In this document: piece after piece, positions 18,780 to 53,732 of the stretch
Numbering within the stretch: position 1 is the stretch's first letter
Layout of the letters: every line of letters starts with the position of its first letter
Origin: Eledone cirrhosa
Taxonomy: Eukaryota
Length of the DNA stretch: 64,000 nucleotides
Assembly (NCBI GenBank): GCA_964016885.1
Contig: OZ024757.1
Span: 25,420,001 to 25,484,000 of the forward strand
Direction of reading: 5' to 3'
The notes under the pieces: generated by a model
Told to the model about the DNA's origin: nothing
Databases searched by the model: none
Seen by the model: the letters and a program-made list of their open reading frames with translations, nothing else
Translations under genes and position numbers: made by a program

Positions 18780-19870
18780 TCAGCTGAGATGAGAGAAACC
18801 AGCAGTAGCTGAGAAGAGAGTTAATCCTGTGATAGACTAACGTCCCATCCAGGGAGAGTCTTAGTTCCAGTACACTCAGCTGAAAATGAGTACCAACAGT
18901 AGCTGAGAAGAGAGTTAATCCTGTGATAGACTAACGTCCCATCCAGGGAGAGTCTTAGTTCCAGTACACTCAGCTGAAAATGAGTACCAACAGTAGCTGG
19001 GAAGAGAGTTAATCCTGTGATAGACTAGCGTCCTATCCAGGGAGAGTCTTAGTTCCAGTACACTCAGCTGAAAATGAGTACCAACAGTAGCTGGGAAGAG
19101 AGTTAATCCTGTGATAGACTAGCGTCCTATCCAGGGAGAGTCTTAGTTCCAGTACACTCAGCTGAAAATGAGTACCAACAGTAGCTGGGAAGAGAATTAA
19201 TCCTGTGATAGACTAGCGTCCTATCCAGGGAGAGTCTTAGTTCCAGTACACTCAGCTGAAAATGAGTACCAACAGTAGCTGGGAAGAGAGTTAATCCTGT
19301 GATAGACTAGCGTCCTATCCAGGAAGAGTCTTAGTTCCAGTACACTCAGCTGAAAATGAGTACCAACAGTAGCTGAGAAACGAGTTAATCCTGTGATAGA
19401 CTAGCGTCCTATCCAGGGAGAGTCTTAGTTCCAGTACACTCAGCTGAAAATGAGTACCAACAGTAGCTGGGAAGAGAGTTAATCCTGTGATAGACTAGCG
19501 TGCTATCCAGGGAGAGTCTTAGTTCCAGTACACTCAGCTGAAAATGAGTACCAACAGTAGCTGGGAAGAGAGTTAATCCTGTGATAGACTAGCGTGCTAT
19601 CCAGGGAGAGTCTTAGTTCCAGTACACTCAGCTGAAAATGAGTACCAACAGTAGCTGGGAAGAGAGTTAATCCTGTGATAGACTAGCGTCCTATCCAGGG
19701 AGAGTCTTAGTTCCAGTACACTCAGCTGAAAATGAGTACCAACAGTAGCTGGGAAGAGAGTTAATCCTGTGATAGACTAGCGTCCTATCTAGGGAGAGTC
19801 TTAGCTCCGGTACGGTACACTCAGCTGTAGCTGGGAAGAGAGTTAATCCTGCAATAGACTGGCGTCCTAT
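18780..19870 (+). repeat. 94-bp tandem array (about 11 copies) inside a SINE
   Basis: period 94 (18875, 18969, 19063, 19157...). Confidence 0.93.
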
Positions 19871-33893: not shown

Positions 33894-34204
33894 CTGAAAC
33901 AAACAAAAATATGTTGCAAGTAAATTACAGAACACCCCCATTTTGTTTCGTTTCATGATCATCACCCTTCACCCTAGAGTCCATCACCCTCCCCATTTTT
34001 TTGCAACCCTAGAGTCCTTGCCTTTCCTTCCATTTTCATAATCACAAAAGTCACTTGAATCTTTTACAATAAGCTGCAAGAAACATTGCACTCGATATTG
34101 CGCAGCAACCATTCCATTGTTGTTTGATGATAGTTTATGATCGAGATGTACAAACTCTACGGCCAAATAAAAAGATCAACTCGTGGTGTGAGTAGGTTAT
34201 GCCA

Positions 34205-37183: not shown

Positions 37184-37219
37184 TCTTAACGTTTCGGACG
37201 CTAGTCCTTCATCAGAAGA
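37184..37219 (-). ncRNA. Minimal Penelope-type hammerhead motif
   Basis: UCUU-CUGAUGA-A-GGAC(UAGC)GUCC-GAAACGUU/AAGA. Confidence 0.68.
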
Positions 37220-39512: not shown

Positions 39513-39609
39513 AGATACACAATATGGCCGATTGTATTTGCGTGTGTATATAGTTCGGATATATTAAATAAATATATATTTATATATATTTCTAGCCATC
39601 ACATTAAAA

Positions 39610-39729
39610 ATGCCACCTTTTGAGAGAATGCATCCGATGTTTTATGCTTTAAGCAATTTCAGACGAAGAAAATTCAAGGAATGCGCCGAATTATGTACTA
39701 GTATTCTAGAAAAGACACCTTATGACGAG
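39610..39729 (+). CDS. TTC8: TTC8 exon 1 (MPPFERMHPMFYALSNFRRRKFKECAELCTSILEKTPYDE)
   Basis: ATG at 39610; GTAAGT donor. Confidence 0.9.
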
Positions 39730-40498
39730 GTAAGTAATGTTAAATATATATTTTATAATGAACGGCGAAGATGTTTTTAACTGTCGCCAGAGTTAATTTC
39801 ATGTGTGTGTTTATTATTTCCGTTATGTTCTATAGTATTTGGACACTAAACCTAGTTAATGACAAGGGGTTAGTTACATGTACGAACGAGGAAAACTTTT
39901 AAACACACACACAACGAAGCAACAGGAATACAAAAATATTGAATTTCGATGTAATTGTTTTTACTGAAGAAAATAATTTGATAAATTTTGCGGTTATCTT
40001 GAACTTTCTCGCGTTCAATTATTTTCTTGTTTTTTTTAAAAATAATTTTAAGAAAAGTAAATAAGAAACATAAATTATAATATATAAAAGTGTCTTATTA
40101 TACATCATAATAATTGTTTCTACATTTGGCACAAGGCCAGCAAAATATGCAGTACATTACTGGTACTTTATTTTCTCGACCCCATAAGGATGAAAGGCAA
40201 AGTTAACCTCGGCGGGATTTGGACTCAGTCTGTAAAGGGACGTAACTAAGCTGGAAAGCATGGCGTCCGACTCTCTACCGATACTTCCAATCCAAATGTA
40301 TCCAATACACAATATTGCCGAAAATGTTTTCTTGAACAGGAACTCCTGGATGGAGAGTGCCAAAAAGTGCCTCGTTTGATCTCCCCATGGCACGGAATTT
40401 GACTTTGCAAAGCCCTTCCACACACTTTGTGGGGATTGGGTTAGGGTAAATTGAATAATTTAAAATTTAATTATGAAAACGAAGCTACCGAATAAATA

Positions 40499-41122
40499 TC
40501 TATATATATAAAACTGAGGATGTCTGTCTGTGTCTGTGTCTGAGTTTGAATCCCTAAAACTCGAGAAGTACCCAACCGATTTTTTTCAAACTTTACATGT
40601 GTATTACTTATGTTTCAGGGAGTGTTAGGCACATAGCAAAATTGAACTTTTTGATCCCATAGAGCCCGCATTAGGTGAAAAACTGTGTTTTTTTCCAGCT
40701 TTTTAGGGGGTTTTTGAGGCATTACGTCAGAACGATCTCCTTGAAATTGTAACTATGTATTCGTCAGTCCCTTCTTCATACCGTGAGCAAAGAAAATCCA
40801 ACTTTTTTTATTGCCTAGGGCCCGCATTAGCTGAAAAACTTCATTTTTGAGGCGTTACATCTAGCCGATTTTCCAGAAATTTCAAAGCATATTATGCACA
40901 TAAAAAAAATTCATTTTCTTGATCCCCTAGGGCCCACATTAGGTGAAAACCTGCATTTTTCCTGCTTCATCGAGGAAAATCTTAAAGATCATCCAGCCAT
41001 CAGAGTATACGGTTTATTTTCTTTACATATTGTCCAGGCATGCAGTTTTTTCACGATTAGGTCTGTTGGCGGCCCGCATTCCAAATTACCTTATCCCGTG
41101 CAACGCCGGGTACCACTGCTAG
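40499..41122 (+). mobile_element. Non-autonomous Helitron
   Basis: 5' TC, 3' hairpin CCCGTGCAACGCCGGG followed by CTAG, inserted at A/T, no TSD. Confidence 0.8.
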
Positions 41123-41329
41123 TAATTCAATAAAAACACAATATTATTTATTCAATGTTAATATCTTTCTTACATTGAAAAAAACCAATAACGAAATTTT
41201 AACCAATAACAAAATTTTATTGTAAGTGATTAATATTTATACAGCAGCTAGAGAATCTAATAAATACATGTATTTATTTTATCAAGGTGTATAAATATAT
41301 AATAATATAATTCATTGAACATCTGGATG

Positions 41330-41595
41330 CTGCGATTAGGACGAGAACCACAGCTTCCGCAGCTGAGCGGAGTAAGACCCTCAAATACTGTGATCTGTCG
41401 GCCAGCTACATTTTTCAGCCTGTGGCTTTCGAGACGTTTGGGGGGAGTCGGGCCGGTGACTGCAAGGTTCCTCTCTTCATTGGTGGCTCGCCTAATAGAG
41501 GTAACTGGCAAATCTTGCGAGGGCGCTTGGTTGTTTCAGCGCATCAGCTTCGCCATCACCTGAGGCAATGCTGCGAGTGTGCTGGCTTGCCTAAA
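41330..41595 (+). mobile_element. Fragment of an RLE-bearing (CRE-like) non-LTR retrotransposon C-terminus
   Basis: AAERSKTLKY..YIFQPVAFETFG / RLIEVTG..WLFQRISFAIT*GNAASV; one frameshift and one stop. Confidence 0.65.
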
Positions 41596-42487
41596 AAATC
41601 ATTGGCTCGGTTGTTCACCCCTTCCTTTACATTTTCTTTAATATTGCAACATTAAAAGAATATATCCTTCTGAGGGAATCGCGAACGATTTATAATGTTA
41701 TCTAAGCATGTGTAATGTTATTTATGTATATATTTAAAACATATTTGTTATGTTATTCTACTATAAATTTATTTATATGCTTTGTATAGTTTTAATACAC
41801 AAACCAATATTGCAGATAATGATAAAGGAATGAGAAAAAGTGTTTGTGTGTGTTAAGGCAATTCACCACCAAGTGCGACAATCGGCCATACCTCACACTT
41901 TAGGGGTTAACTACACACTTTGAGGCAAGCCAACACGCTCGCAGCTACATTAAAACAAACAAACAAAACATTTTATATGACAAAAAAAAAAAGAACATTA
42001 CAATAAATTCCATATTTACGAATGTACACTATACAATTATCCCCCCCCCCCTCTGATAAGAGTTTAAGTCTACCACCATCACCTCCATTATTTGGGATCT
42101 GAGAGTAGCTGGGGAGGGTGGGGATAAATGATAAAGAATAAAGGATAAATATCCCATAACTCCTTGTGGAGTGTCTAGGGCACTTTTATTTTAAACCTGG
42201 TGGAGCCCAACCCTCTCCAGGTCTGAACACAGCTGATTTTTTCTATAGAGGAAGAATCGACCCCAGTACTGGACTGGTACTTTTTTCATCCACCTCAAAA
42301 GAATGAAAGGTAAAGTTGACCCCGGCAGGATTTGAACTCAGAGCGCACAATGAGGTGGGACAAGTACCGTAAATCATTCTATCCGACGTCTTAACGACTC
42401 TACCAGTTCGCCCCCTATAAACAATGAAGGTAGCTTTTTAATATCTAGCCATATTTTCTTTTCTTTTTTTCCTTTTTTGCTATTTAG

Positions 42488-42675
42488 GCAGCCTGGTCTT
42501 TGAAGACCCGGGCCCTTACAGAGCAGGTTTATATTGATGATGCAGATATGGAAGAGGAAACTATCGCTGAAGGTATTCTAGATGAAAACGCTCTCGCTCA
42601 GAATGTCCGCCCTGGCACTTCTTTACAGACAAATTTATTGGAATGCAAGCCAGATGGAATAAGTCCTGCCATCAG
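42488..42675 (+). CDS. TTC8: TTC8 exon 2 (AAWSLKTRALTEQVYIDD...RPGTSL...PAI)
   Basis: TTTAG acceptor; phase 0->2. Confidence 0.93.
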
Positions 42676-42699
42676 GTGTGTTTTGTGTTTTATTCTTTC

Positions 42700-43560
42700 T
42701 TGGCAGTATCGGTAGAGGGTCGGACGCCATGCTTTCCAGCATAGTTACGTCCCTTTACGATCTGAGTTCAAATCCCGCCGAGGTTGACTTTGCCTTTCAT
42801 CCTTACGGGGTCGATAAAATAAAGTACCAGTAATGAACTGGTGATTGCTGGCCTTGTGCCTAAAGTAGAAACAATTATTATTATAAAGGCGGTGGATTGG
42901 CAGTATCGGTAGAGGGTCGGACGCCATGCTTTGCAGCATAGGGTTACAGCCCATTACGGTCTGAGTTCAAATCCCGCCGAGGTTAACTTTGCCTTTTATC
43001 CTTACAGGGTCGATAAAATAAAGTACCAGTAATATACTGGGATAATTGCTGGCCTTGTGCCAAAAGTAGAAACTCTATTATCCAGCATAGTTACGACCTT
43101 TTCCATTCTGAGTTCAAATCTCGTTGAAGTTAACTTTGCCTTTCATCCTTACGGGGTCAATAAAATAAAGTACCAGTAATGTACTGTGTAATTGCTGGCC
43201 TTGTGCCAAAAGTAGAAACAATTATTATTATTATTAGTAATAATTGTTTCTACTTTTGGCACAAGGCCAGCAATTTGAAAGGGGTGGGGAAAGTCAATTA
43301 AATCGACGCCAGTGCATTACTGGTACTTTATTTTATCAACCCCATAAGGATGAAAAGCAAAGAGCCTAACCTCAGCAGGATTTGAACTCAGAACGTAAAG
43401 GGCCATAACTCTCTGCTGCAAAGCATGGTGTCTGACGCTCTACCAATTACTGCTAATACACCACTTTAATAATAATAATAATGGTTTCTGATTTAGGCAC
43501 AATACCAGCAAATTTTTTGGCGGGTGGGTGAGGGGGGAAAGTCGATTAAATAGACCCCAG
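42700..43560. mobile_element. Cluster of tRNA-derived SINE family B copies (tandem, then inverted)
   Basis: GAGTTCAAATCCCGCCGAGG...GCCTTTCATCCTTACGGGGTCGATAAAATAAAGTACCAG with (ATT)n tail; also at 5.8k, 23.5k, 40.2k, 59.8k and 60.8k. Confidence 0.8.
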
Positions 43561-43693
43561 TGCATTGAATAAGAGGAAAAGAGTATGAATGTTTCAGATA
43601 CTAGTCCTTCATCAGAAGATAGGATGAGAAATAAAAGATGAAATGGAAAGTGTGAGGAAGAAGGAATGCATTAAAAAATGAGAAAAAAATACA

Positions 43694-44138
43694 AGAGAGA
43701 GAGAGACAGAGTATGAGAGAGGGAGAGAGAGACAGAGTGTGTAAGAGAGAGACAGAGTGTGAGAGAGAGAGAGAGACAGAGTGTGTAAGAGAGAGAGAGA
43801 GAGACAGAGTGTGTGTAAGAGAGAGAGAGAAAGACAGAGTGCGAGAGAGAGAGAGAGACAGAGTGTGTGTAAGAGAGAGAGAGAAAGACAGAGTGTGAGA
43901 GAGAGAGAGAGAGAGAGAGACAGAGTGTGTGTAAGAGAGAGAGAGAAAGACAGAGTGCGAGAGAGAGAGAGAGACAGAGTGTGTGTAAGAGAGAGAGAGA
44001 GAGACAGAGTGTGAGAGAGAGAGAGAGAGAGAGAGACAGAGTGTGTGTAAGAGAGAGAGAGAAAGACAGAGTGCGAGAGAGAGAGAGAGACAGAGTGTGT
44101 GTAAGAGAGAAAGAGAAAGACAGAGTGCGAGAGAGAGA
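43694..44138. repeat. (GA)n/GT compound minisatellite
   Basis: seen directly. Confidence 0.92.
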
Positions 44139-44192
44139 TTGTTAATTAATTGTGTTTTATTTGAATGTTTTTTTTTTCTGTGTATTTGACAG

Positions 44193-44352
44193 ACCGGTGA
44201 CACAATCCGGTCGTCCGGTGACAGGTTTCATACGTCCAGGAACTCAGTCCAGTCGTCCAAATACCATGGAGACAGCACTTCAGACTGCCCGCACTGCACA
44301 CACGGCTCGTCCTGTCAGCTCAACTTCCGCTAGATATGTCCGACTAGGAACA
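44193..44352 (+). CDS. TTC8: TTC8 exon 3 (PVTQSGRPVTGFIRPGTQ...RYVRLGT)
   Basis: GTAAGG donor; phase 2->0. Confidence 0.94.
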
Positions 44353-45209
44353 GTAAGGAGATTTTGTCTTTTTAAAGTTTTTCATTTCATTTCATTTTCA
44401 TTTCATTTCATTTTTCATTTCATTTTTTATTTTTCATTTCATTTTTTATTTTTCATTTCATTTTTCATTTCATTTCATGTTTCATTTCATGTTTCATTTC
44501 ATTTCATTTTTCATACCAATGTTCAGGTATTGTTCTCAAAATAAATAATATCAAAATCTCATATTTTGTGAGATATTATGTGAGATAATTATGTGAGGTA
44601 AAGCTTTTACTGTGAAAATACAATAGTAAATATAGAGTAATGTAAATGCTAAAGGGTTAACCCTTTACCATTCAAACCGGCCATATTCGGCCAGAATTCC
44701 CTCACCTCTTTCTGTTCAAACTGGCTGTAACTGACCAGTCATACTGATGTTGAGGTATTGTTCTCAAAATAAATAATATCAAAATCTCATAGATTCGATA
44801 TTATGTGAGATAATTATGTGACGGAAAGCCTTTACCATGAAAATATAATAGTATATATAGAGTAATGTAAATAGTATGTGAGATAATTATGTGAGGGAAA
44901 GCCTTTACCATGAAAATATAATAGTATATATAGAGTAATATAAATAGTATGTGAGATAATTATGTGAGGGAAAGTCTTTACCATGAACATATAATAGTAT
45001 ATATAGAGTAATGTAAATAGTATGTGAGGGAAAGCCTTTACCATGAAAATATAATAGTATATATAGAGTAATGTAAATAGTATGTGAGATATTATGTGAA
45101 ATAATTTTGTGAGGTAAATCCTTTACCGTGAAAATATAATAGTAAATATAGAGTAATGTAAATGCTAAAGGGTTAAAATTAAGTATCTTTTTGTGTTCTT
45201 TTGTGACAG

Positions 45210-45344
45210 GCATCTATGGTTTCTTCTCCTGGTGGTGCTTTCATCAATTTGGCACGTTTGAATTTAAATAAGTACTCACTTCGTCCAGAGCTGTCCAAGT
45301 CTCTCTTTGAATATATTTTCTACCACGAGAATGACATCCGAACA
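45210..45344 (+). CDS. TTC8: TTC8 exon 4 (ASMVSSPGGAFINLARLNL...LFEYIFYHENDIRT)
   Basis: conserved BBS8 segment; GTAAGA donor. Confidence 0.94.
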
Positions 45345-46007
45345 GTAAGAAACTAACTCCCTGTTTTTTTATTTTTACTTTTTTATTTTATTTTTATACT
45401 AATTAACCCATACAAGCATGGAAATCATCATCATTGTCATCATCATCATCATCGTCATTACTGTTTAATCCTTTAGCATTTACATTACTCTATATTTACT
45501 ATTGTATTTTTACGGTAAAGGCTTTACCTTATATAATTATCTCACATAATATCGAACCTATGAGATTTTGATATTATTTATTTCGAGAAAAATACCTTCA
45601 TTTCTTCATGAGTGGCCAGTTACAGCCAGTTTGGACAGAAAGAGGTGAGAGATTTCTGGCCAGTTTAAATGCTAAAGAGTTAATGTCCATTTTTCCGTGC
45701 TAGCATGGTTTAGATGAGTTGTCACATTGTGAGTGAAGTCAGATCAGATGACCGCAGTAGAAGGTGACCAAGAAAGACCTTGGAAGAGGAGATGATGAAG
45801 GAACGCGATGTGTGGAGAGATGCTGTGCTGAGAAGGACCCATCCAATCTAAGCAAGCAAGGAAAAGCAGATGTAAAAACCACGACGACATGATGATGATG
45901 ATGGTGGTGAGGAAGATTAGCATCAGGAAGAACATCCAGCTTTATAAAAAAAAAAACTGCCTCAAAAACGTCTTGTCTGACCCATGCCAATGGTATACCA
46001 GTGTTAA

Positions 46008-46560
46008 TAATAGTAATAATAATGAAAATTATTGTGTACAGTGCTCAGGTGCACTACAATTCATCATAGGTGCATGTATAGTACTTAGAATAATGTACAA
46101 ATGTCAGGAAAGTGAACAGTGTATGAGTCATGATATACACACAGATACATGCGGGCGTGTGTATGGAGGGGAAATATCAGGTGTAGTGTTGGCGAATTTC
46201 AGGAAGTTTTGAAGGATGCAGTGTCCAAACAGCTAACAACTGATGCAGGTAGTTTGGTCCATGCTTCAACAACTCTGAGCGTGAAAAATCTTTTCCGAAG
46301 ATCATGGGGGCTGTGCTGTTTTCTGACTTTGTAGGCATGTCCATGTGTGTTAGACACATGGAATTCAAAAAGGTGCTCAAAGTTGTTGTTGGCAAGATGG
46401 TTAATAATTTTGTGGGTGTCTACCAAGTCAGTTGCCAGACAGTCGGAGCTTTACTGTTTTCTGATTTTGTAAGCATGTTCATGTGTGTTAGACATGTAGA
46501 ATTGAAAAAGTTGCTCAGGGTTGTTGTTGGACAGATGGTTAATAATCTTGTGAGTGTCTC
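46008..46560 (-). mobile_element. CR1 3' fragment, partly duplicated
   Basis: homologous to 55050-55620. Confidence 0.8.
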
Positions 46561-46561
46561 A

Positions 46562-46930
46562 TCATCATCATCATCATCCTTCAACTCCTCTGTGGGCAGT
46601 CAGAACTCCCTTTGCAATCCCTTTCCACACTGTTCGGTCCTGCATTGTTGTCCCCAGATCCCTTATGTCTAACCTTGAGTCCCGAGCTATGGTGTCTGGG
46701 AAAGTCAGTTTTCGTGAATAGACACATCCAGAGCGATGCCACAAAAGGAGAGATGAAATGATTTCTTTGTTGGCTTGATGACAGTGACCAGCAAACTGTA
46801 GTCATTTTTTGCCTGAGTCTGAGGGATATTGGAATCAAATCTCCGTAGATGGTTTCAAGTGTTGTGTGTGATCTCCAGCTTAAGTTTTTGATTCTGAGCA
46901 GATTTGTATATGCTCCATCCATCCAGCCGT
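46562..46930 (-). mobile_element. RTE-like LINE 3' fragment nested in the CR1 fragment
   Basis: MDGAYTNLLR..NLSWRSH..IYG; (GAT)n tail; cttgtgagtgtct appears on both sides. Confidence 0.65.
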
Positions 46931-47295
46931 CTTGTGAGTGTCTACCAAGTCAGTTGCCAGACGTCGGAGCTTTAACCCTTTAGCATTTAAACCAGCCATA
47001 TCCGGCCAGAATTCTCTCACCTGTTGCTGTTCAAACTAGCCATAACTGGCCATTCATACTTATATTAAGGTATTGTTCTCAAAATAAATAACATCAAAAT
47101 CTTGTAGATTCAATTATATGAGATAATTATGTAAGATAAAGACTTCACCACAAAAATACAATAGTAAATATAGAATATTGTAAATGCTAAAGGGTTAATG
47201 TATCTATGCCCAGGGAAGCAAGGCATTCAAAGTATGGTAGATGTTTTTTTTTTGTTGTTTTTTTTTGCCTTATCTTATCTATGATTCTTTGACAG

Positions 47296-47580
47296 GCTTC
47301 AAGATTTGCAAACATGGCTTTAAAGAGCCACAAAGACCAAGCTTGGTGGTGGCAGTTCCATTATGCCAAATGTTGCTACAGAATGAGCCTGTATCGTGAT
47401 GCTGAGGTTTACCTGAAGCAGGCCTTGAGTGAACAGGAGACGGTGGCTCTCTATCACTACATCAGTAAAGTTTACATCAAGCTTGACCAACCTCTCAATG
47501 CCATTGGCATGTACAAAACCGGATTAAACAGGTTTGCAGGGGAGGTAACTCTGCTGGTCGGCATTGCCAGGATTTATGAA
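47296..47580 (+). CDS. TTC8: TTC8 exon 5 (ASRFANMA...WWWQ...KLDQPL...GIARIYE)
   Basis: TPR repeats; GTAAGT donor. Confidence 0.94.
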
Positions 47581-48202
47581 GTAAGTTTCGTATTTTTTTA
47601 AATGATTTAACTTTGTTTAGTGGTTTCTTTTTTTGGGGGTTTTTTTTTTTTCTTTCCCCCAACTTGAAATGAAGGAAGGGGAAAGTAAAATGTAAAATAA
47701 CGGGCCTCGGGCTTTTGATGGAATCGTATGGGCGCCATCTTGACATTTAAATCAATGTCTGATGACTTCCAGAGAGAAGGAGAGAAAGGGAGTGATAGAG
47801 AGAGAGAGAGAAAGGGAGTGAAAGAGAGAGGATAATATATTAGCATGTTCTTTTTCCTTGTTGTTATTCTCTTTCTTCTTCTCCTCCTTCTGGATCTTCA
47901 TTGCTATCATCATCAACTGAACTCCTCTCATCCTCCACTTTTTCTTTTCCTTCTTCTCTCCTCCTCCTCCTCCTCCTTCAATTCCCCTCCTCCTTCAGTT
48001 CTTCTCCTTCTCTCCTTCCTCTCCCTCCACATTCTCCTTCAGTTCTTCTCCTCCACCTCCTCCTTCAGTTCTTCTTCCTCCTACTACTTTTCTCCTTCTC
48101 CCCTTCAGTTCTTCTCCTCCTCCTTCAGTTCTTCTTCATCAATTTTTCTCCTACTACTACTCCTCCACCTTCATCTACCACCATCTTCCCCTCCATTGCC
48201 AG

Positions 48203-48342
48203 AGTCTGAACCAGCTGGAGGAGTCTGTCAGCTACTACCGTAAGGTGCTGGAGCTGGACAGCATGCAGGTGGAGGCCATCGCATGTATTGCTACCAACCA
48301 CTTCTACAACGACCAGCCTGAGGTAGCCCTCAAGTACTTCAG
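48203..48342 (+). CDS. TTC8: TTC8 exon 6 (SLNQLEESVSYYRKVL...VEAIACIATNHFYNDQPEVALKYF)
   Basis: conserved segment; phase 0->2. Confidence 0.94.
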
Positions 48343-48709
48343 GTAAGGCAGAGTGGGGGGGGGGGGCATGGGGGGAAGTAGGGAGAGAGAGAGGTGAACA
48401 GAGAGAGTAAGTGAGTAGGGAGAGAAAGAGTGAGTAGCAAGAGTAGGGAGAGAGGAAGAGATGAACAGAGATAGAGAGAGGAAGAGACGAACAGAGAGAG
48501 AGTGAGAATGAGCGGGAGCTTGGAATAGCAGAGAGTGAGAAAGAGAGGTGGACTGGGAAAGAGAGAGAGAGAGGGGTAGTAGGGAGAGAAAGAGGGAGAA
48601 GCAGAAAGAGAGAAAGGGGTAGTAGAGAGAGTGGGCTTAAAATAGCAGAGAGAGAGAGAGAGAGACATAATGCCCACATCTAAGGAAACAATTCCTTTCT
48701 CACCTGCAG

Positions 48710-48884
48710 GCGACTCCTTCAGATGGGTGTGTACAAGTCGGAGCTGTTCTGTAACATGGGCCTGTGTTGTTTCTATGCCCAGCAGTTTGACATGGTGATG
48801 GTATGCTTCACTAAAGCCCTCGCTTTGGCTGACGACAATCTCGTTCTCGCAGATGTTTGGTATAATGTCGGACATGTAGCAATA
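48710..48884 (+). CDS. TTC8: TTC8 exon 7 (RLLQMGVYKSELFCNMGLCCFYAQQFD...VWYNVGHVAI)
   Basis: conserved segment; phase 2->0. Confidence 0.95.
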
Positions 48885-49074
48885 GTAAGTTGGACGTTTC
48901 TAATCTATTCTTCTCTCTTGGCCTTTTTCTTCTTTTTTCTATTTGTTATTTGCAATGTTTATTTTTTCCTGATGATTTTTGTAACCTCCCGATTGCAAGC
49001 TCAATGCCCTAACCACTAAGCCATGTGCCTTCACACACACGCACAAAATAGGAAAGGTTTCTAAGTGTGTGTGT

Positions 49075-50357
49075 ATCATCATCATCATCATTTTACGTCC
49101 GCTTTTCCCTGCTTGCAAGGGTGGGACGGGTCTTATTCAGCACATCATCTCTCCACTCGTCATCTCCACCATGAGCTTCAATGATCTGAGGTCTGTTCTC
49201 ACCACCTCCGCCCATGTTTTTCGTGGTCTACCTCTACCGCGTCTTCCTTCAACTGGCATTTCCTGGCACTTCTTCATCCATCGGTCATCCTCCATGCGCA
49301 TCACATGTCCATACCACCTCAGTCTCCTCTCCCGTACACTACATTCTATCCCTCTCAGACACAGTTTCTCTCTCAACACATTTATGCTGGGTCGTTCACG
49401 CACATTTACACTGCATATCCAACGGAGCATGCTTGCCTCATTTCTCTCCAGCCGTCGCATATCCTCTGCAGTTGCTGCCTATGTCTCACTACCATGCAGC
49501 ATCGCGCTCCTCACACAGGCATCATACAACCAGCCTTTCGTACGCAGGGAGAAACCCTTCTTCGTCAGTAGAGGAAGCAGCTCCCTAAACTTCTTCCAAC
49601 CCGTCCTTATTCTAGAAACTATGGCCTCGGAACACCCTTCCTCCCATGCTAATCTGATCTCCTAGGTACCAGAAGCTATCCACCACTTCTATAGCGCCCT
49701 CCTGCATTTGAAAAATGTGTCTATCAATGCAACTTCTACTGTCTAATTTCCCTGTACATCTACTGCATACATATTTCTCCCTACCTGTTAGTTTGCCTGC
49801 TATCCCGCTACATCTCTTGTGTACCCAGGATCTGCATTGTGTGCATTTTATAGAATTTATGCCAGTTCCTTTTCTGCATATCGTACATGGCCATTTCCCT
49901 GACGGAATCAGAGTTTTGTCCTCTTTTCTACTCATCAACACTTTTGTCTTAGCGAGGTTCACTCTCAGTCCTCTTGCTTCCAACTGCTGTTTCCATAGCC
50001 AGAATTTATTCTCTAGCTCCTCTACTGATTCTGCTATAAGAACCAGATCATCAGCATAGAGAAGTTCCCATGGACAGCCAGTCTTAAACTCCTCTTGGAG
50101 GACTATAATGAACAAGAGCGGGCTGAGGACCGAACCTTGATGTACTCCTACTTGTATCTGGAATTCCTCACTAAACTCCATTCCTACCCTGACTTTACTG
50201 AGAGTACTTCTGTACAAAGTTTGCACTGTCCTCACAAGCCATTCCTCAACACCTAGCTTCCTTAGGGACCACCAGATGACAGATCGGGGTACCCTATCAA
50301 AGGCCTTCTCTAGGTCAACAAAGGCTAAGTATAGTGGCTTATTTTGGCTTATTTTTT
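49075..50357 (-). mobile_element. 5'-truncated RTE-clade LINE (RT, Cys-rich finger, 3' end with (GAT)n tail)
   Basis: AFVDLEKAFDRV, GVHQGSVLSP, LLYADDL, RLRWYGHV...GRGRPRKTW; frameshifted. Confidence 0.9.
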
Positions 50358-50677
50358 GTATGTATGTATATATTTTTTTATTGACAGTCGATCGACTTTC
50401 GTCGAATTGGACCAAGGAAACAATGTTTCCATTGGTCTTTCCAATTGTTAGTACTATCTATCGGTCACAACTCCAGGTAGAAGGAGCAACGGGAAATAAA
50501 GTGTCTTGCTCAAGGACATAACGCATCACCCTGTCCAGGAATCGAACTCACAACCTCACGATTGAGAATCAAATTCTCTAACCACTGTGTGTGTATATAT
50601 ATGTGTGTGTTTGTGACCAGTATATATAGGTCACAGACACCCACACACATATATATATATATATACACACACGCACG

Positions 50678-50710
<33 letters not shown>

Positions 50711-51154
50711 GGGCCTTCTAATTTCATTTTACATTATATACATGTCTGTATATATTTTAATTATTTAAAAAAATATTTTTAAGTGAATGTGACCCAATGG
50801 AATCACAGGTGGTCCAGTATATATACAGATATTTCCACTTAACTTTTACTTCAGTGCTATTTTTCATTCCTATATGCTTTCCCCTTCACTGTGACCTGTC
50901 TTTTTCTCTTCCCTTACTGCTATCCTCTTTCTTTCTCCCCCTTCTCTCTCCTCCCTCTTACTTTCATTCACCCCCTCTGCTAGTCACCCTCTCTCGGCTA
51001 GCCTCTTCCTCACACTTTCACTCACTCTCTGCTACTTTAATGTCTGTTTACATATATATATATATATCATGATTTAATGTTTATTTTCCATTCTTACATG
51101 AATGTGTCTACCATGGCACCAGTATTAAAATTAGTTCAACTGTTGTTGTTGTAG

Positions 51155-51277
51155 GGAATTGGAGACCTTGATCTGGCCCACCAGTGCTTCAGAATGGCCC
51201 TGTCCAATAACAACGACCATGCTGAGGCCTACAACAACTTTGGGGTTATTGAATTGAAAAGGGGACACTTAGAAATG
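51155..51277 (+). CDS. TTC8: TTC8 exon 8 (GIGDLDLAHQCFRMAL...HAEAYNNFGVIELKRGHLEM)
   Basis: TPR; GTAAGG donor. Confidence 0.94.
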
Positions 51278-51453
51278 GTAAGGAAAACAGTCTAACATTC
51301 AATAGCCCTTATTGTTGTTGTTGTTGTTTTGTTTTATTTAATCTTGCTCTATTTTTTTAACAGTAAAAAATGTGTTATTCTCCTTCTTTCTTTCTTTTCT
51401 TCCTTCCTTCTTCCTTCCTTTCTTTTCTTCCTTCTTTCTTTCCTTCCTTTTAT

Positions 51454-51533
51454 ATATGTCAAACAAGGTCATTGTATCAATTCTGCCATTGCTCTGGCTC
51501 CTCACATGTCCGAACCATACTATAACTATGCTG
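51454..51533 (+). pseudogene. Degenerate tandem duplicate of TTC8 exon 9 (pseudo-exon)
   Basis: Aligns to 51611-51689; acceptor TAG changed to CAA; 1-nt insertion. Confidence 0.85.
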
Positions 51534-51619
51534 TGGCAGGGCAGACGTTTTACATGATAGGTACACCAGCTTCAATACAATAACTTCTTTTTCTCTTTCC
51601 TTTGTTATTTATATGTTAG

Positions 51620-51703
51620 GCAAGGTCATTGTATCAGTCTGCCTTTGTTTTGGCTCCCCACATGTTCGAACCACACTACAACTATGCTGCACTCAACGAG
51701 AAG
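51620..51703 (+). CDS. TTC8: TTC8 exon 9 (ARSLYQSAFVLAPHMFEPHYNYAALNEK)
   Basis: TTAG acceptor; 84 nt; phase 0->0. Confidence 0.92.
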
Positions 51704-52332
51704 GTATTTATTATATTTGTATGACTCTCTTAAATATCACGTGACTAATACATCTATCTATCTGTTTGTCTGTCTATCTATCTATCTATCTATCTGTCTA
51801 TCTATCAATCTATCTATCTAACTATTTGTCTATCTATTTATCTGTCCCTCTATCTATCTATCTATCATCATCATCATTTAACATCTATGTTCCACGCTAT
51901 CATGGTAAGATTGGTCGGGTGACTGTGTCTCGCTCGTATAGGACTATCTGGCAGGTTTTCTATGGTTGGATGACCTTCCTAACACCAACCACATTTACAG
52001 TGTGTACTGGGAGCTTTTTACTGTGTTACCTACTCGACCACATTACAGCGTGGACTGTGTTTTTTTGTTTTTTCTCTTTTTCTCTTTCTCTCTTTTTTCT
52101 TTCTTTCTCTTTTCCCTTCTTTTTTCTCCCTGTCTATCCATCCATGCTTTTGTCTTTCTTTCTCTCTCTCATCATCATCATCACCATCATCTAGCAGGTT
52201 GAATAAACAAGTATTTTATCTATTAATTCCTCAATGTATTTTATCTATTAATTCCTCTTATTGTGGTCCTATACATCCAACACCTTTAATAGCAGTTTCG
52301 ATCAACATCGTTTCTCTTCTTCTCTCAAACAG

Positions 52333-52449
52333 CTGGGTGATCTGCAAGGTAGTTACAATGCTGTACAGAAGGCACTGAAGGCCTTCCCACAACACACAGA
52401 GTCGAAGGAACTGTTACAGCAGCTGTGTCAACACTTCTCACTTCTTTGA
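52333..52449 (+). CDS. TTC8: TTC8 exon 10, terminal (LGDLQGSY...FPQHTESKELLQQLCQHFSLL*)
   Basis: conserved BBS8 C-terminus; TGA. Confidence 0.93.
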   Translation: MGDLQGSYNAVQKALKAFPQHTESKELLQQLCQHFSLL

Positions 52450-52783: not shown

Positions 52784-52860
52784 TATGTAGAGGAAAGAAG
52801 AGTGCTCTATGTATTGTACAAAGCTATTTAATTATATAATAAACAACACAATATTTAGAT

Positions 52861-52932
52861 ATTTCATTTGATGAACGAACTGGACATTTCTGTTAGAATC
52901 GTCTAACTTTGTGAAACCTTGGGTAATGGAAT
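52861..52932 (+). ncRNA. Type I hammerhead ribozyme motif (U3 variant), tandem unit 1
   Basis: AUUUCAU-UUGAUGA-stem II-GAAA-CC(UUG)GG-UA/AUGGAAU. Confidence 0.6.
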
Positions 52933-53072
52933 AATTATATTGTGTTGTTTATTATATAATTATATATATATTGTATTTATACATCATCATCGTTTAACGT
53001 CCATCTTCCACGCTACCATGGGTTTGGACGGGACCTATATATATATATGTATATACACATATATATATATAT

Positions 53073-53113
<41 letters not shown>

Positions 53114-53190
53114 TATGTAGAGGAAAGAAGAGTGCTCTATGTATTGTACAAAGCTATTTAATTATATAATAAACAACACAATATTTAGAT

Positions 53191-53262
53191 ATTTCATTTG
53201 ATGAACGAACTGGACATTTCTGTTAGAATCGTCTAACTTTGTGAAACCTTGGGTAATGGAAT
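53191..53262 (+). ncRNA. Type I hammerhead ribozyme motif, tandem unit 2
   Basis: identical to 52861-52932 (+330). Confidence 0.6.
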
Positions 53263-53402
53263 AATTATATTGTGTTGTTTATTATATAATTATATATATA
53301 TTGTATTTATACATCATCATCGTTTAACGTCCATCTTCCACGCTACCATGGGTTTGGACGGGACCTATATATATATATGTATATACACATATATATATAT
53401 AT

Positions 53403-53443
<41 letters not shown>

Positions 53444-53520
53444 TATGTAGAGGAAAGAAGAGTGCTCTATGTATTGTACAAAGCTATTTAATTATATAAT
53501 AAACAACACAATATTTAGAT

Positions 53521-53592
53521 ATTTCATTTGATGAACGAACTGGACATTTCTGTTAGAATCGTCTAACTTTGTGAAACCTTGGGTAATGGAAT
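53521..53592 (+). ncRNA. Type I hammerhead ribozyme motif, tandem unit 3
   Basis: identical to 52861-52932 (+660). Confidence 0.6.
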
Positions 53593-53732
53593 AATTATAT
53601 TGTGTTGTTTATTATATAATTATATATATATTGTATTTATACATCATCATCGTTTAACGTCCATCTTCCACGCTACCATGGGTTTGGACGGGACCTATAT
53701 ATATATATGTATATACACATATATATATATAT

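Follow-up and report, generated by a model that had tools for sequence, protein, structure and literature searches.

The 64,000-nt stretch of Eledone cirrhosa DNA analysed here (the window; contig OZ024757.1) carries three tandem 330-bp units behind the stop codon of TTC8, each with a hammerhead motif. This raises the question of whether the array is a retrozyme, a ribozyme acquired by the 3′ end of a host gene, or a remnant of another element. A preliminary description had called it retrozyme-like, with the caveat that an ordinary duplication might have captured a Penelope-type module. In our analysis the caveat became the best-supported reading: most probably, a decayed end of a Penelope-like element (PLE), joined to a SINE-like fragment, was tripled locally via flanking microsatellites and is carried as a passenger with weak or no cleavage activity. 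The array is likely a recent passenger.

Anatomy of the tandem array

Self-comparison of the window assembly sequence showed that the period-330 identity spans exactly 52775−53737. The three reported units are present in the assembly; they start at 52787, 53117 and 53447 and differ by 0 and 1 base, the sole mismatch (53738) lying within a microsatellite. TRF returned 3.2 copies at 98%. The GC content of the array is 25%, and approximately one quarter of the 330-bp unit is microsatellite. Each unit contains one TTGATGA core (52868, 53198 and 53528), one AATAAA (52838, 53168 and 53498) and one GAAACCTTGGGTA, the 3′ ends of which (52925, 53255 and 53585) agree with the cleavage sites predicted earlier.

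The previously described anatomy of the unit (hammerhead, U3, inverted repeat, AATAAA and SINE tail) held in every part. To the left of unit 1 lies the compound microsatellite M0, (AC)6(AT)18(AC)3(AT)4 (52725−52786). Unit 1 opens with an inverted copy of a PLE pLTR tail (52787−52854, minus strand), which forms the left inverted-repeat arm and carries the AATAAA at 52838 on the plus strand; its reverse complement aligns to the pLTR tails of the full-length element L110 and the intact sister element L140. A 5′-truncated PLE pLTR with the hammerhead follows on the plus strand (52859−52965), as identified by the fold and the family alignment, and ends in (TA)n without a tail. Its ribozyme comprises stem I (52861−52867/52926−52932), the core with U3 (52868−52874), stem II (52875−52912), GAAA (52913−52916) and stem III (52916−52924), with the cut predicted after A52925. 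The bracketing inverted repeat results from the overlap of the two PLE arms, the inverted tail and the truncated pLTR. Further along, on the minus strand, blastn revealed a 54-nt end piece of an abundant repeat unrelated to PLE (52982−53035), which we term SINE-like from its (ATG)n tail and size; it gave 37 blastn hits in the window and the fetched loci, with 12 others within the window. The microsatellite M1 (53036−53116) completes the unit. Unit 2 (53117−53446, plus strand) is identical to unit 1, with its predicted cut after 53255, as is the non-microsatellite part of unit 3 (53447−53695, plus strand; predicted cut after 53585), and the compound TA/CA microsatellite M3 (53696−53924) flanks the array on the right. 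Since an inverted tail and a truncated pLTR are joined to a SINE-like end and a microsatellite, each 330-bp unit is, judged by its sequence, a chimera of three unrelated pieces: a PLE end, a SINE-like tail and a TA/CA microsatellite.

Both ends of the array lie in TA/CA microsatellite and not at PLE ends, and consequently no TSD is readable. The internal microsatellites M1 and M2 are each a hybrid, with a 5′ part corresponding to the right-flank tract M3 and a 3′ part corresponding to the left-flank tract M0. This is the pattern predicted by unequal exchange, although a misjoin could mimic it. The hybrids bear on the possibility that a single real insertion was written three times in the assembly owing to the long TA tracts. 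The identity of the units down to the mutable (AT)n lengths, together with the location of both ends in low-complexity tracts, would suit such an artefact, but the internal tracts are clean hybrids of the two flanks, and near-identical local tandems are common in the window. Indeed, 10 further non-microsatellite arrays with a period of at least 90 bp occur in the same 64 kb. On this evidence, we consider an assembly artefact unlikely; the contigs of four sequencing runs stop short of covering the whole array and have no bearing on its copy number. Among the tandems elsewhere in the window, the array at 18798−19813 (94 bp × 10.8) is 97% identical, and that at 34198−34981 (136 bp × 5.9, 94%) resembles a LINE fragment.

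The hammerhead fold and its parent element

The MFE structure of 52828−52962 is a three-way hammerhead junction with a closing helix of 26 bp, and none of 200 shuffles was as stable (z = −6.95); the stability of the bare 72-nt motif was like that of its shuffles (z = −0.04). The topology is that of a type I hammerhead, with three helices round the core and an opening at helix I. All elements of the core (C3 U4 G5 A6 N7 G8 A9 / G12 A13 A14, A15.1-U16.1 and H17) are present except C3, which is U. The Rfam hammerhead model gave no match at its gathering score over the whole window, and hammerheads were absent among the 90 Rfam matches at E ≤ 10 over 52700−53800.

Family copies gave further support for the fold. 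We aligned 56 distinct copies from 63 hits (alignment A1; L101, which has an internal duplication, was left out), and 88% of the cells were paired in the three-helix structure, compared with 31−49% in the slid-partner controls. The covariation score of these copies was 0.164, against 0.140 ± 0.005 for shuffled alignments, and 0 of 500 shuffles reached it. The 56 copies are related, and since the pattern used to select them prescribed part of the core and of stem III, invariance at those positions is circular. For the window copy in its natural context, the predicted stem I probability of 0.95 was the highest of the 56; values above 0.5 were predicted in 3 of the 9 copies with an inverted arm and in 4 of the 47 without. 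The linear and circular 330-nt predictions gave probabilities of 0.95−1.0 for stem I, approximately 0.75 for stem II and approximately 0.48 for stem III, and the 330-nt circle is predicted to be 72% paired.

Several structural observations accompany these results. In A1 columns 17−19 and 54−56, the two basal pairs of helix II are weak or open in several subfamilies (for example C-C, C-U or A-A), ahead of a G-C pair that is conserved; such a hammerhead variant is unusual. The 26+7-bp AU-rich duplex at 52829−52961, which contains the AATAAA, may be a candidate substrate for A-to-I editing if transcribed. Just downstream of the array, 53998−54052 (plus strand) preserves the remains of another minimal hammerhead, unrelated to the first and present in high copy, with a palindromic TGCGCA stem III, in which G12 is T here and G in approximately 99% of the family read depth. 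Another minimal hammerhead-like motif from a repeat family (CTGATGA, 4-bp stem II, GAAACG) lies at 37215 on the minus strand. Owing to lazy matching, a generic hammerhead descriptor applied to the window failed to recover the motif of the array itself, and these motifs are accordingly no census.

The motif belongs to a large dispersed family. A tight motif pattern had 790 exact matches genome-wide and none for its reversed control. With the 249-nt non-microsatellite unit as the query, 3159 first-look candidates were obtained; the 40 that were scored showed 79−100% identity on many contigs, and among them the three window copies alone matched at full length and 100%, the others mostly covering bases 1−198 at approximately 80−89%. 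From 84 fetched loci, 3 duplicates were dropped. A second hammerhead on the same strand was found at 1 of the 81 distinct loci (867 bp away, with other repeats between), an opposite-strand match at 19, an inverted tail upstream at 33 (a count biased upward by the 249-nt-unit query) and a tail on both ends at 3. Both in the window and in most of the copies examined, the ends border on (TA)n/(CA)n, in line with a microsatellite target. RAD reads of two runs sampled other family copies only.

Loci with coding sequence connected the motif to its element. Among 20 ORF loci, L110, L123 and L126 have a hammerhead arm and tail that continue into a 5′ UTR and the start of the ORF (in L126 with only the stem II−III part of the arm), and in L121 the tail does so. 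L127 has RT, endonuclease and UTR parts with the hammerhead behind them on the same strand, and L107 likewise has it behind the ORF, with an internal deletion; in an upstream walk, L104 showed an RT fragment between two opposed ends. The family end is therefore found both upstream (L110, L123 and L126) and downstream (L127 and L107) of a single putative RT-endonuclease ORF, as a pLTR would be. In addition, an intact, young sister family with many 714-aa ORFs, 76% identical over a 102-aa RT stretch, has a homologous C3 hammerhead approximately 260 nt before the ORF and again approximately 4.3 kb later in all five regions fetched. Its downstream pLTR ends in (TA)n without a tail in 3 of the 4 copies read far enough, as does the window arm. 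The anatomy in the window, an inverted copy beside a 5′-truncated one with a tail at one end only, corresponds to the published PLE layout, in which partial tandems are accompanied by an inverted 5′ copy and only one end bears the tail (PMC8557442; PMC3846280), and PLE pLTRs are known to harbour hammerhead motifs (Cervera and de la Pena 2014, PMC4209133). Taken together, alignment and architecture indicate that the window motif is the pLTR hammerhead of a dispersed PLE.

The 714-aa ORF contains FDIVDFYPS, YRDD and a C-terminal VVYEA..YVGMT, which we take to be RT and GIY-YIG endonuclease motifs. It had no match in Pfam or the PDB and matched a Neptune-type ORF only weakly (E 0.0076, probability 5%), and its atlas neighbours carry RVT_1/GIY-YIG. 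The PLE status of this ORF, which rests on the motifs, the architecture and these neighbours, falls short of full certainty. A PLE ORF that adjoins a family hammerhead at locus L004 was considered as the parent and rejected: it belongs to a different, Neptune-type family with its own 3′ end, is nested in a TA tract, and the family hammerhead was in none of its other copies examined. The young, intact family with the 714-aa ORFs (L137−L141) has near-identical copies, 4.3-kb tandems and inverted pairs and an identical pLTR hammerhead with a short stem II, and would serve well in assays of PLE ribozymes and transposition. A second PLE family (L071, L072 and L074−L076) is very abundant, with 16074 first-look candidates and ORFs of more than 1000 aa in which a long Asn-rich stretch occurs; its 3′ UTR carries a minimal hammerhead-like motif.

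The TTC8 3′ end and predicted ribozyme activity

The gene before the array is TTC8 (BBS8), as previously proposed. Its last coding exon (52333−52449, plus strand; stop codon TGA 52447−52449) matches the C-terminus of TTC8 in the PDB (E 6e-07), and the exon at 48720−48893 matches with E 5.6e-20. Ten exons, from 39514 to 52449, were mapped via a retrocopy on contig C4 (L145/L146, G000:C4:371552250-371554150). This locus is an intronless, processed TTC8 copy with a 5′ inversion: four 3′ exons are in the sense orientation and six upstream exons are joined and inverted. The outer end of the inverted arm and the beginning of the sense arm nearly abut in the mRNA (approximately window 48715/48719), a twin-priming-like layout with microsatellite flanks. 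The retrocopy aligns to 52331−52755 joined to the upstream exons and thus includes the CAG/CAA-rich 3′ UTR (52450−52755, plus strand), which extends to a CA/TA tract, indicating that spliced TTC8 RNA reaches approximately 30 nt before unit 1. It ends in this tract at approximately 52755 and lacks the PLE arm; possible reasons are that the mRNA ended or was primed at this point, or that it was older than the insertion. Neither AATAAA nor ATTAAA occurs between the stop codon and 52838, a stretch with just the variant AATACA (52722), and the first AATAAA after the stop is that of the PLE arm. Reads from another organism, which we guess to be RNA, cover the last exon plus 48 nt and nothing more.

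The window ribozymes would likely cleave weakly or not at all, as suggested by departures from the family sequence. C3 is present in 702 of the 790 pattern matches and U3 in 38, scattered over subfamilies. A U3-G8 combination is expected to reduce hammerhead activity. In stem II, the window copy has lost one G-C pair of the family majority and changed another to G-U, both at CpG sites. Position 3 deviates from C in 11% of 55 copies, and C columns deviate in 12% on average; C3 is thus lost about as often as other C columns, as neutral decay would give. The C3-G8 core pair covaries to U3-A8 in nature (PMC3088659), and our literature search for measured rates of C3U ribozymes returned nothing usable. 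Poor cleavage in vitro has been reported for PLE hammerheads (PMC4209133), and 8 of 9 Xenopus dimers tested did not cleave (10.64898/2026.07.22.740005). In the structural model, the inverted arm clamps stem I, so that cleavage during read-through would be possible, and with its 3-bp stem III the hammerhead might not require a dimer; this clamp would also hold the cut products paired (7+26 bp, approximately 33 bp).

These features could be read in another way, in which the array has the same origin but is a retrozyme at birth within a host 3′ end. TTC8 would act as the promoter and its read-through would transcribe the array; the inverted tail of the PLE would clamp each hammerhead into an active fold that cuts despite U3, and the triplication would add the second and third cut sites. 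As a consequence, 330-nt monomers or circles would be released, or the TTC8 mRNA would be destabilised or given a ribozyme-made end. The retrocopy UTR that comes close to unit 1, the first canonical poly(A) signal at 52838, the sense orientation of the array and a fold predicted in both linear and circular contexts are consistent with this scheme. There are also published precedents, as a preprint proposes a birth route from a PLE end to a local tandem (10.64898/2026.07.22.740005) and a Clec2d 3′ UTR hammerhead reduces reporter output by 80% (PMC2950038). However, U3 against G8 breaks the core pair, stem II has two further losses, the AATAAA at 52838 lies before the first ribozyme, the retrocopy stops short of the array, the cut products would stay paired, and approximately one quarter of the unit is microsatellite. 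We therefore judge a retrozyme at birth to be rather improbable. If this reading were true, the locus would give rise to its own 330-nt circle, the transposon would also supply the poly(A) signal of TTC8, and the proposed step from PLE end to retrozyme would be directly testable at one locus.

The reading that we prefer, a decayed and locally tripled passenger, can be set out as a series of steps. A short two-armed PLE end, whose motif is the pLTR hammerhead and whose left arm is the inverted tail, would have inserted into a (TA)n tract in the 3′ region of TTC8, with a SINE-like end arriving next to it. The copy has drifted from the family majority at C3 and the two stem II pairs. After this decay, unequal exchange or slippage involving the flanking TA/CA microsatellites M0 and M3 would have duplicated the patch at the DNA level, and one further round would have left three identical units. 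TTC8 transcripts would terminate no later than the PLE-borne AATAAA, or continue beyond it with little cleavage.

Relation to retrozymes and other hammerheads

The description of the array as retrozyme-like found no support in the sense of family membership, as the hammerhead belongs to the PLE pLTR family. A tandem of the motif at 315−345 bp gave only 2 matches genome-wide, both within the window array; the genome-wide test covered these periods, and other periods were covered in the 81 loci and the first matches listed. That the array is an inserted member of a mobile family, produced by reverse transcription running around a 330-nt circle, is highly improbable and already largely refuted: its unit size, GC content and single type I motif per unit fit published retrozymes (PMC7229834) and the genome has an intact PLE able to supply RT, but the 330-bp tandem has no second locus, the 249-nt unit occurs at 100% only here among the 40 scored of the 3159 candidates, and the inverted arm and foreign SINE-like piece in each unit, with a right array end that is not a PLE end, fit poorly with circle copying.

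The array nevertheless shares several properties with metazoan non-LTR retrozymes (Cervera and de la Pena 2020, PMC7229834; Li, Clavereau and Pollet 2026, 10.64898/2026.07.22.740005), namely head-to-tail units within 150−450 bp that each hold one type I motif, a low GC content and descent from PLEs, and it matches the birth step proposed in the latter study. In contrast to those retrozymes, it is a single locus, known here from DNA alone, with no multi-locus family of the same unit; its units are chimeric, with a SINE-like tail and microsatellite, and the array ends in microsatellites; and consensus ribozymes in at least two consecutive units are lacking, as U3 makes the core non-consensus in all three.

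The closest likeness is to the pLTR hammerheads of PLEs (PMC4209133, PMC8557442, PMC3846280), which have a type I motif in the pLTR with a long helix II, occur mostly solo or as opposite-strand pairs, and share the inverted 5′ copy, the tail on one end only and insertion at (TA)n. The window hammerhead differs from the known PLE type, as described in these papers, in a helix III of 3 bp with a non-palindromic UUG loop, which is not minimal, in a helix II base of A-U (weak or open in subfamilies) in place of G10.1-C11.1, in U3, and in having been tripled together with flanking foreign DNA. The Clec2 3′ UTR hammerheads (PMC2950038) likewise lie on the sense strand behind a stop codon, but they are conserved across mammals and were shown to be active, whereas the window hammerhead is a transposon remnant with a core change. 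Our literature search found no paper on cephalopod hammerheads, although the supplements of PMC4209133 and 10.64898/2026.07.22.740005 may list mollusc PLE hammerheads; octopus PLE families are given in PMC13282606, whose text at hand does not mention ribozymes.

On the best reading, then, the TTC8 array adds to the known PLE pLTR hammerheads and exemplifies the step of local amplification put forward in 10.64898/2026.07.22.740005. A PLE family of this genome is defined together with the hammerhead of its pLTR, and the case illustrates that a screen for tandem repeats with hammerheads can label locally duplicated PLE debris as retrozymes. If the array were transcribed and cutting, it would show at a single locus the birth step by which animal retrozymes have been proposed to arise, and the 3′ end of a BBSome gene would be under transposon-derived control.
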